Of a DNA stretch of 64,000 bases, positions 34,559 through 35,901 are shown in pieces. The stretch lies in the sequence record GQ981382; one strand, 5' to 3'. The DNA comes from Shigella phage SP18. The notes beneath the pieces were generated by a model that was given only the letters and a program-made list of their open reading frames with translations, made no database searches and was not told the origin of the DNA. Numbering within the stretch: position 1 is the first letter of the stretch; each line of letters opens with the position of its first letter. The position numbers were made by a program, and so were the translations under genes.

Positions 34559-34905
34559 TTGATAATTGTTTTATAGGTCACTTCAGCTGTGTAGAAGTTT
34601 TTGGCTTTCATTACAATAGCTTCACCCTTTGGATTCGCCTCAATCCATTCTCTGGCACGTTTATGTGCTTCCAGTTCAGTAAGCAAACCAGAGCGTTGAC
34701 AGCCACGGTCTTGTGTACCAGCTTCACTTAAGAAAGCGACTAGATAAATTGCGTCGTCATACGGTTTAGCAGGTGGGATGTACACCGGAGGACTCGGTGG
34801 GACATACGCAGCAGGATGATGACCCGGAATTTCATTGTATGGACCAGGCGCGGCATAAGATGCTCCACGTGGTGTAGTAAACGTGTGATTGTATCTATCG
34901 TTCAT
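34555..34905 (-). CDS. Hypothetical protein with Pro/Tyr-rich N-terminus
   Basis: 116-aa ORF; hairpin plus T-run terminator overlaps its stop on the minus strand. Confidence 0.5.
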   Translation of the reverse strand: MNDRYNHTFTTPRGASYAAPGPYNEIPGHHPAAYVPPSPPVYIPPAKPYDDAIYLVAFLSEAGTQDRGCQRSGLLTELEAHKRAREWIEANPKGEAIVMKAKNFYTAEVTYKTIIK

Positions 34906-34914
34906 AATATTTTC

Positions 34915-34947
34915 CTAGAAAAAAGGGACTCCGAAGAGTCCCTGAAC
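34915..34947 (-). terminator. Terminator hairpin downstream of the 53-aa basic ORF
   Basis: GGGACT-CCGAAG-AGTCCC followed on the minus strand by TTTTTT. Confidence 0.6.
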
Positions 34948-35109
34948 TTATGCTTTCGGCTTACCAAAGCAAGCTGCATCGGCACGCAATACCGCACGAG
35001 CACGAGCCTGAAGTTTATCAGTTACCTGATTGATTCGCTTGTTGGACGCACGCTTGTAACCAGCGCGTTTGGAGGAGCCATCAACAACTTTAACTTCTTT
35101 CTTAGCCAT
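34948..35109 (-). CDS. Small basic protein, 53 aa, not in the ORF track
   Basis: Hand translation MAKKEVKVVDGSSKRAGYKRASNKRINQVTDKLQARARAVLRADAACFGKPKA; AAAGAG RBS-like element; terminator hairpin directly downstream. Confidence 0.45.
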   Translation of the reverse strand: MAKKEVKVVDGSSKRAGYKRASNKRINQVTDKLQARARAVLRADAACFGKPKA

Positions 35110-35506
35110 ATTAAATTCTCTTTAAAATAGAATGCAGGACTTATTGGCATTGCCTGCGCAAGCCCTCGAAGGGAACATTAGGTTTCGGATATTTAACGAC
35201 AGGATAACCATAAACCTCGTCATCATACCTTATAGCTCTTATCTGTTGCACACCGTTAGCTTAAAGGTTCCGGGTTCGATTTCTCGAGGATAAGATATAT
35301 ACTGATGGATATATAGGCCTTGAGGCGTACTCCCGATTGGCCATCACCTCGGGGTAGCATGCACTTGCCGCTATAAGAATAACATTCAAGAGGTACACCA
35401 TAAAATTGCCGAGGTCTTAAAACTATAATGATTCGCAAATCATTAATCAGACAATTCGACGGCTCCTCGATTTTAGCTCACACTAAGGCAGTGAATCTCC
35501 AATAAA

Positions 35507-35761
35507 TTACTTCAGAGTTACGACAAAATGGCGAACAGCTTTACGGGCAGCAGATGCCAGCGGCTTAGCAAATTTCAGTTCATCTTTTGCTTCGAGCACT
35601 GCACGAAGGTCGGTTTGAATCGGGTTAAGATGTTTGAAATACTGCAGAATTTCCAGTGCTTCGGCTTCAACATCAATAGATGCGCCGTAGTTTTCGTGAC
35701 CGTTATTCCATGCAGTGCGTTGCAGTTCAAGAGCGTGTTGTAATTGTTTGTTTAAAGACAT
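35507..35761 (-). CDS. rIII: rIII-like lysis inhibition accessory protein
   Basis: 84 aa from the internal Met (MSLNKQLQHALELQRTAWNNGHENYGASIDVEAEALEILQYFKHLNP), matching T4 rIII by recall; GAGG RBS; adjacent to gene 31 as in T4. Confidence 0.8.
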   Translation of the reverse strand: MSLNKQLQHALELQRTAWNNGHENYGASIDVEAEALEILQYFKHLNPIQTDLRAVLEAKDELKFAKPLASAARKAVRHFVVTLK

Positions 35762-35901
35762 TTTAGAAGCCTCAATATGAGGTGAATATTTGGTGGACAC
35801 GTTCTTCTGAATTTCACTTCCTTTCGGCAAGTCTCTCAGTTGTAGTCCACCGTTTAGGATTCTCCGGTTAACTAACTGGTCCGGCAGCCAATCCATATTA
35901 T

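Follow-up and report, generated by a model that had tools for sequence, protein, structure and literature searches.

A probable structured-RNA cassette in the spacer between rIII and 30.9 of T4-type phages

It has been reported that PeSLs, each consisting of an early sigma-70 promoter and a terminator-like stem-loop, are repeated many times per phage genome (PMC2839356, PMC4122927), and these descriptions make no mention of rIII or 30.9. Like the elements that we describe here, PeSLs are short non-coding modules at the gene boundaries of plastic regions, which have been reshuffled between phages. The rnaC and rnaD RNAs of T4 (species 1 and 2) are likewise non-coding RNAs of T4-type phages; they are found in the tRNA cluster.

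In this study, we analysed a stretch of 64,000 nt from Shigella phage SP18 (GQ981382; hereafter the window) and in particular its spacer between rIII and 30.9. The T4 group is among the most closely studied of all viruses, and this spacer is unannotated in T4 itself and often mis-annotated in its relatives. We consider it very probable that the spacer contains a functional and novel structured-RNA cassette, hereafter called the core, which is read from the minus strand. The core, by contrast with a PeSL, lacks a promoter, occurs only once and folds into a complex structure with covariation, and assignment as a PeSL cassette was rejected on finding no promoter-like site on the minus strand of the gap and only one copy of the core. 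It also differs from rnaC and rnaD in its locus and shows no homology to them; T4 lacks the core, and a covariance model built from aligned diverse core copies (model R1) reached, with filters off, at most 6.4 bits in T4 69500-74500, a range that contains rnaC/rnaD (70908-71171).

The spacer between rIII and 30.9

The first-pass annotation had remarked on an island without a convincing coding frame between rIII and a 53-aa ORF, and this description holds. The ORF-free gap at 35110-35506 (397 nt) of this T4-type Straboviridae phage is real, and its limits are the start codon of the 53-aa ORF on one side and the stop codon of rIII on the other. The genes cd, 31.2, 31.1, 31 and rIII, the gap and 30.9 follow each other in T4-like order, all on the minus strand, and the closest records to the region are those of Escherichia phages P479 and 212. 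The upstream flank is the rIII CDS (35507..35762, minus strand), which matches phrog_1457 over residues 3-84, and the downstream flank is gene 30.9 (34948-35109, minus strand), which encodes a basic protein of 53 aa matching phrog_1427, that is T4 gp30.9, and whose leader and ribosome-binding region occupy 35110..35133 (minus strand). The ORF listing gives rIII 129 aa, starting from an ATG at 35896; because T4 rIII has 82 aa and the PHROG match spans an 84-aa version, the true start is probably at 35762, so that gene 31 and rIII would be about 155 nt apart. A 2003 article by Driukas and Nivinskas in Biologija, to which PMC9409239 refers, reportedly deals with rIII/30.9 expression. The terminator scan reported only 34943-34924, 34556-34541 and 36325-36309; the first two are strong intrinsic terminators with a UUCG loop on the minus strand, one after 30.9 and the other after the gene that follows it, and they delimit short transcription units downstream of the spacer.

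The gap is non-coding. Six mechanical ORFs of 25-60 aa overlap it, for which neither PHROGs nor Pfam gave a match, and no frame is kept: among 35 homologues of the central part, no more than 12 have any one frame open, and the distances between invariant anchors (124-139 nt) vary by amounts not divisible by three. In GenBank, many genomes carry short 'hypothetical protein' CDSs over the RNA region, in frames that differ among phages (for example PP723050.1 CDS0046-0048, PV400811.1 XRA41273.1, ON720975.1 and MZ170040.1, and also in KEN22 and NM4.3), and in two records a 'glycogen branching enzyme' has been annotated there. These short CDS annotations are probably spurious calls, and model R1 could be used for correcting the annotation in about 400 genomes.

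The gap matched 997 phage records, mostly with 90-95% identity, as compared with mostly 80-90% for the surrounding 3 kb, and the match is a mosaic of a left segment (segA, 35112-35230), a middle part of about 150 nt and a right segment (segC, 35382-35506). The T4 spacer of 244 bp has segA and segC without the middle 150 nt; these segments are 94.8% and 96.0% identical to those of T4, as against 85.5% for rIII, 78.6% for gene 31 and 79.7% for 30.9. The middle 150 nt, in turn, is 92-96% identical in Jiaodavirus, Karamvirus and Moonvirus, which are phages of Klebsiella, Enterobacter and Citrobacter and have this segment always directly after rIII, while rIII of the same phages is only 76-81% and gene 31 only 71-75% identical. 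Since the pieces of the gap are more identical than rIII, 31 and 30.9, the spacer is under stronger constraint at the nucleotide level than the genes that flank it.

The comparison of the rIII-proximal region in related phages, which had been proposed together with the view that free variation in length would speak against a function, uncovered conserved modules. Spacer length does vary among relatives, from 120 to 398 nt, but the differences come from entire modules being gained or lost, and the modules themselves are strongly conserved in sequence. The island would be best described as the untranslated spacer of a minus-strand rIII-30.9 transcript, packed with independently folding RNA modules, of which at least three are domains with a fold of their own. 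In SP18 their order on the minus strand is M2', MC, core, M1, T-hairpin and pre-RBS hairpin; this order varies by genus, with M1 on the 5' side of the core in Jiaodavirus and on its 3' side in SP18, and with M2 5' of the core in SP18 and 3' of it in PKM.Lu.22.1 and JC221.

Fold and strand of the core

The core spans 153 nt (35229..35381, minus strand) and is modelled as a four-way junction of P1, P2, P3 and P4/P5. The closing helix P1 (35370-35377/35229-35236) has 8 bp, P2 (35347-35356/35328-35340) contains a conserved bulged A, and P3 (35310-35315/35296-35301) is an AU-rich hairpin that is 100% paired, with three compensatory pairs. P4 (35289-35295/35237-35243) encloses P5 (35284-35287/35276-35279), which has a GAAA loop that is mostly GAAA or GUAA among homologues, and a kissing helix of 6 bp joins the loop of P2 (35341-35346) to that of P3 (35303-35308). 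The junction strands GGCAAGKGCAUG, GGCCUAU, ACCYGGAMCC and GCUAACRGUGUGCAAC are near-invariant, and the core alignment has 58 invariant columns.

Among 19 sequences, 93.2% of the cells in the core helices are paired, sliding the partner by 1-3 columns lowers this to 30-39%, and 27 of the 41 core pairs, including all eight of P1, have undergone compensatory change on both sides. None of 500 shuffles reached the observed pairing values, although such statistics overstate the significance because the core sequences are related and the independent compensatory events come from perhaps five to seven lineages. The kissing helix lies outside the covariance model and therefore provides an independent test of the fold. 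Each of the 12 distinct loop combinations allows at least six contiguous Watson-Crick pairs, as compared with 3.6 on average when the combinations are mismatched, and six different pairs of 6-mers are found in this position (UGAUGG/CCAUCA, CGAUGG/CCAUCG, CUAUGG/CCAUAG, CAAUGA/UCAUUG, UGUAUU/AAUACA and UGCAUU/AAUGCA). A change of C110-G128 to U-A in one clade, which is a single event, hints at a possible P6 of 3 bp; an all-against-all search for further covarying core columns was swamped by clade-level correlation. Model R1 gives 188 bits at 35229-35381 on the minus strand, with no second copy in the window, and scores of 95-188 bits over 41 loci. Folding of the core and of the whole gap as single sequences, on both strands, yielded structures no more stable than those of shuffles (z about -1), and single-sequence folds that are indistinguishable from shuffles offer no choice of strand or structure.

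Two features that had been picked out in the first-pass annotation take on a different meaning in this fold. A tandem direct repeat had been placed at 35291-35312; its unit GATATATA indeed occurs twice, about 3 nt from there, at 35294-35301 and 35308-35315, but instead of a tandem direct repeat the two copies represent the two arms of P3 (35294..35315, minus strand) plus the kissing loop to P2. The hairpin AATGATT/AATCATT is also present, one nucleotide away from the position given, at 35427-35444; with one more pair it reaches 8 bp (35426-35445), and it lies within the module MC. Repeat and hairpin both lie within helices or domains backed by covariation.

With regard to the strand, the minus-strand reading gives G.U pairs that would turn into A.C mismatches on the opposite strand: the core has them at pair 34-47 (GC in 10 sequences, GU in 9) and at pair 100-115 (UG in 4), and in MC a UG is found in 6. 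Canonical cells make up 95.7% of the core when it is read as the minus strand and 93.0% when read as the plus strand, which is a modest difference. The GNRA (GAAA/GUAA), UUCG and UGCG loops are present only in the minus-strand sense, and the orientation of the core is that of the immediately upstream gene in every genome context examined. We favour a reading in which the RNA would be on the minus strand, in the same sense as rIII and 30.9. The earlier suggestion of a small RNA was thus well aimed in that the element is conserved and non-coding and appears to function at the RNA level, but not in its choice of the antisense strand. As the promoter scan reported no promoter-like site on the minus strand of the gap, the RNA is most simply part of the rIII-30.9 mRNA, and it is from this gene context that we infer minus-strand transcription through the gap.

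The covariance-model scan that had been recommended was carried out with Rfam 15 and gave no family match: there was no gathering-level match in the window, and at E values of up to 10 the region 34800-35900 produced only five chance-level matches (14-19 bits), none of them over the core. Among known self-cleaving ribozymes, the hammerhead, twister, twister-sister, pistol, hatchet and HDV-like models were tried and did not match. ARAGORN found no tRNA or tmRNA gene in the window, and a GGTTCGAT-like string corresponds to the plus strand of one arm and the loop of P5. BLAST of the gap hit one place per phage record. No description of the core RNA was found in the literature, mostly that outside subscription journals, with exact sequence strings included in the search, and the main text of an automated catalogue of candidate phage RNAs (PMC10690425) gave no sign of it, though the catalogue might include the core unnamed. 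Judged by its sequence and by these models, we rate the core as a putative new, previously undescribed RNA family among the phage-borne structured non-coding RNAs.

Companion modules and spread of the core

Upstream of the core on the minus strand lies the domain MC (35383..35473, minus strand), an extended stem of 91 nt that is also present in T4. It is built of the helices GAGG/CCUC, CCGU/AYGG and AAYURUC/GRYARUU and capped by the 8-bp hairpin with a UGCG loop, UAAUGAUU-UGCG-AAUCAUUA (35426..35445, minus strand). In MC, 98.6% of the cells are paired, with four compensatory pairs, as compared with 23-65% in slid controls; the alignment is 97% identical, and its few variable columns are mostly in the stem. 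The apical hairpin is invariant in all aligned homologues, which makes it neutral evidence for folding. All T4-type copies have an invariant GGAG in an internal loop of MC, here within GAGGAGC at 35462-35468 (minus strand). The T4 endoribonuclease RegB cleaves at GGAG, and the conserved GGAG of MC could be a candidate RegB site. The rIII protein has been linked to RegB/S1 (PMC9409239).

The module M2' (35475..35500, minus strand), GGAGAUUCACUGCCUUAGUGUGAGCU, was seen in alignments and has a small hairpin, CACU/AGUG. It is the version of SP18 and T4, and the canonical M2, GGUGAUUCGCUACCUUAAGUGCGGCU, is common to VR7-type T4-likes and Grimontviridae phages. The 26 nt of M2 are identical in VR7-type phages, where they stand just after rIII, and in two Grimontviridae phages, namely PKM.Lu.22.1 (positions 1455-1490 of the extracted locus) and PKM.Hi.22.6. 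In both PKM phages M2 lies directly before a UUCG terminator, whether the core is present or absent. M2 may be a shared 3'-end element or a patch of homology that lets the core move between families.

On the other side of the core, M1 (35176..35228, minus strand), which T4 also has, is a candidate H-type pseudoknot. Its hairpin GAC-G-AGG...CCU-GUC carries a loop GGUU, which pairs with AACC beyond a conserved GUUAAAUAUCCGAA linker, and this pairing of loop and downstream strand changes in a coordinated manner among relatives (GGUU/AACC, GUGAG/CUCAC, GUAGU/ACUAC and AGGUU/AACCU); a permutation test of the pseudoknot did not discriminate, since the loops share GGUU. M1 is followed by the T-hairpin GUUCCC-UUCGA-GGGCUUGCG (35157..35176, minus strand), which has a short G+C stem, a UUCG-type loop and conserved flanks. 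Almost every homologue has a hairpin of this kind, in the general form GUWCCC-loop-GGGCUUG, after the core. The T-hairpin lacks a U tract and is absent from the output of the terminator scan and is therefore no canonical intrinsic terminator. The pre-RBS hairpin GCAGG-loop-CCUGC (35134..35157, minus strand) lies just 5' of the ribosome-binding region of 30.9, a position that is taken by unrelated hairpins in other genera.

Two further observations concern the layout of the spacer. Its ends are complementary (TTATTGG at 35141-35147 and CCAATAA at 35499-35505, with neighbouring bases), and a fold of the whole gap predicts a closing helix there; this helix is not kept in VR7-type relatives, and we make no claim for it. 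Phages of the VR7, e11/2 and SF types have another segment, about 50 nt long, where the core would be (positions 1232-1527 of the extracted VR7 locus), and this segment resembles a partial duplicate of M1 (AGGUUAUCUGUC...), which suggests recombination between repeated modules.

The core itself is found in about 400 phage records and is absent from T4 and about 60% of the relatives; going by these genomes, it is dispensable. In a first clade of carriers, which comprises some Tequatrovirus, Gaprivervirus, Jiaodavirus, Karamvirus, Moonvirus, Serratia and Edwardsiella phages, it stands after rIII. In a second clade (Slopekvirus, Pseudotevenvirus and Yersinia phage JC221) it stands after uvsY/uvsY.-2, in a convergent intergenic region that faces uvsW.1 and has no co-directional downstream gene, and a strong bidirectional terminator follows about 200 nt beyond. 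In Slopekvirus, Pseudotevenvirus and JC221, 350-600 nt without an ORF separate uvsY.-2 from uvsW.1 (extracted-locus positions 1486-1830, 1480-1880 and 1130-1760). Besides the core, this stretch contains more conserved hairpins with compensatory changes, such as GCCAG-AAUAGUACCUCA-CUGGC versus GUCAG-...-CUGAC, as well as the strong bidirectional terminator at its end, and is probably another multi-module RNA region.

The core is also carried by PKM.Lu.22.1, a 76-kb phage of the Grimontviridae, a family unrelated to the Straboviridae. Here it lies between a hypothetical gene and a sigma-factor-like gene and is followed by M2 and then by a strong UUCG terminator; the downstream gene shows no homology to gp30.9. 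PKM.Hi.22.6, whose flanks are 98% identical to those of PKM.Lu.22.1, has kept M2 and the terminator and lacks the core precisely within its P1 boundaries, and it is exactly the same P1-bounded unit that T4 lacks. The core always follows closely on a stop codon, in the orientation of the upstream gene, and precedes a small G+C hairpin or terminator. Its distribution is that of a portable cassette, which occurs or is missing as a unit exactly delimited by P1, at two loci of the Straboviridae and in one Grimontviridae phage.

No host copy turned up when the core was compared by BLAST with all complete E. coli genomes, and scans of viral, metagenome and genome collections returned only T4-like contigs and chance matches. 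The matches on genome contigs and several of those in metagenomes were rejected as lacking the core, and a pattern scan with GGCAAGNGCATG...ACCCGGANCC added only chance matches in G+C-rich coding sequence. The phages offer natural plus/minus pairs, SP18 or LZ9 versus T4 and PKM.Lu.22.1 versus PKM.Hi.22.6, and with a core that is small (about 150 nt) and dispensable, its function should be directly testable.

Possible roles and related RNAs

A cassette that moves between loci and families while keeping about 58 invariant positions argues for a self-contained function that is aimed at a common enterobacterial target. Carriers share no common downstream gene, which may be 30.9, a sigma-like gene behind a terminator, or none, and this makes a gene-specific leader unlikely. 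The core sequence stays constant while its neighbours change, which would fit autonomous action through the conserved junction, and since all carriers infect Enterobacterales and belong to two phage families, the partner is likely to be either part of the host or a small molecule that is ubiquitous. The mechanism that we prefer, and that we put forward tentatively as a best guess from sequence comparison, is that the core acts as an autonomous RNA which binds a conserved host factor. According to this proposal, the folded core would persist in the mRNA or be released from it, would act as decoy or modulator by binding a factor, such as RNA polymerase or a protein, that is conserved across the Enterobacterales hosts, and would serve as a dispensable accessory for host takeover or anti-defence. 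It is also possible, though we are more doubtful here, that the core represents a new class of functional RNA that unrelated families of Enterobacterales phages exchange as a mobile host-takeover or anti-defence cassette, and that it works either as a new catalytic RNA or by trapping a protein of the host or a small-molecule immune signal.

Alternatively, the core might be a cis-acting transcription element similar to HK022 put or EAR, in which the nascent core binds the elongating host polymerase and alters read-through of the downstream hairpin or terminator. We consider this unlikely, albeit worth keeping in mind. Its location on the sense strand, after a stop codon and 5-70 nt upstream of the T-hairpin, would be as expected, it is intercistronic, as EAR is, and in PKM.Lu.22.1 it is found upstream of the strong UUCG terminator that precedes the sigma-factor-like gene; in addition, a host polymerase conserved across Enterobacterales would explain both the portability and the conservation of the core. 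However, no Rfam antiterminator matches, and outside PKM.Lu.22.1 the hairpin in question is the T-hairpin, which has no U tract. In clade 2 a co-directional downstream gene is missing altogether, so that in Slopekvirus and Pseudotevenvirus read-through into the convergent next gene would yield antisense RNA only, and hairpins or terminators are also found where the core is absent.

A role of the core as a self-cleaving ribozyme of a new kind, or as a cassette for RNA processing, which would cut the mRNA between rIII and 30.9, seems to us decidedly unlikely. A compact multi-helix junction with a tertiary kissing contact and invariant unpaired nucleotides, and a cassette-like spread in phage intergenic regions as known for twister, pistol and hatchet, would suit a ribozyme, and the candidate RegB site at the conserved GGAG of MC would suit processing. 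On the other hand, the core matches no known ribozyme model, is larger than most small ribozymes, and its sequence gives no inferable cleavage site.

More improbable is a ligand aptamer, either a riboswitch with an effect on the T-hairpin and on the expression that lies downstream, or an RNA trap for a small molecule. The core does have a conserved, covarying aptamer-like fold, with parallel hairpins, loop-loop pairing and a highly conserved junction reminiscent of the purine type, and GCAAG of J1/2 could base-pair with CUUGC in the conserved flank of the T-hairpin, as a possible switch. However, this pairing is without covariation support, and assignment as a riboswitch was rejected for want of a consistent 5' leader and of a canonical expression platform: the downstream genes differ among T4-likes, PKM and clade 2, and the T-hairpin has no U tract.

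The first-pass annotation had also drawn attention to a plus-strand element TATAATGATTC at 35424-35434. It is located there as described and overlaps with the 3' arm of the hairpin at the tip of MC, but a plus-strand promoter or antisense small RNA starting from TATAAT at 35424 is very improbable. The hexamer is perfect and conserved in T4; nevertheless, it has no usable -35 at 16-18 nt and no TG extension, it was not reported by the promoter scan, and its conservation is explained by the minus-strand helix domain MC around it. Moreover, a plus-strand RNA would contain an A.C mismatch in 6 of 9 sequences of MC and in 9 of 19 of the core (P2), and on the plus strand the core lies upstream of the hexamer instead of downstream.

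Equally remote is an element that acts at the DNA level, such as a miniature transposon, a recombination hotspot or a replication or packaging site. The 8-bp terminal inverted repeats formed by P1, the precise presence or absence of the core and the reshuffling of modules among genera could be read in this way. However, P1 differs and covaries by lineage at all eight pairs, which leaves no fixed site for a transposase, the PKM insertion has no target-site duplication, and there is one copy per genome; a MITE or DNA transposon remnant was rejected for these reasons. Furthermore, changes of the G.U type are asymmetric between the strands, and nothing points to the replication or packaging cis element that had been suggested earlier. 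Least credible of all is an unannotated small protein gene, for although mechanical ORFs of 46-60 aa cross the core and CDSs have been annotated over it in KEN22, NM4.3 and others, these lie in different frames among phages without a PHROG or Pfam match, no frame stays open through indels that are not multiples of three, and the substitutions in helices are compensatory.

The core can be placed among known systems as follows. It shares with purine-riboswitch-type aptamers a closing P1, two adjacent hairpins joined by loop pairing (6 bp in the core) and very conserved junction strands; in contrast to them, it has a four-way junction, an extra P4/P5 arm and a conserved strand of 32 nt, and it is without an Rfam match, a consistent downstream gene and an expression platform. 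HK022 put and Bacillus EAR are structured RNAs in an operon transcript, upstream of terminator-like hairpins and not tied to one gene, a description that may also suit the core, and by analogy with them the core would target the conserved host RNA polymerase. However, there is no similarity in sequence or model, and one of the contexts of the core has only a convergent downstream gene. The small ribozymes of phages (twister, twister-sister, pistol, hatchet and hammerhead) are also short, portable and conserved intergenic cassettes with pseudoknot or loop-loop contacts, but the core matches none of their models and is larger (about 135-150 nt). Finally, the core is much smaller than ROOL and GOLLD (PMC12286853), has no Rfam match and does not lie beside tRNA genes; in common with these RNAs it is phage-borne and multi-domain, and kissing-loop contacts hold a key place in its fold, which in the modelled core could form either within one molecule or between molecules.
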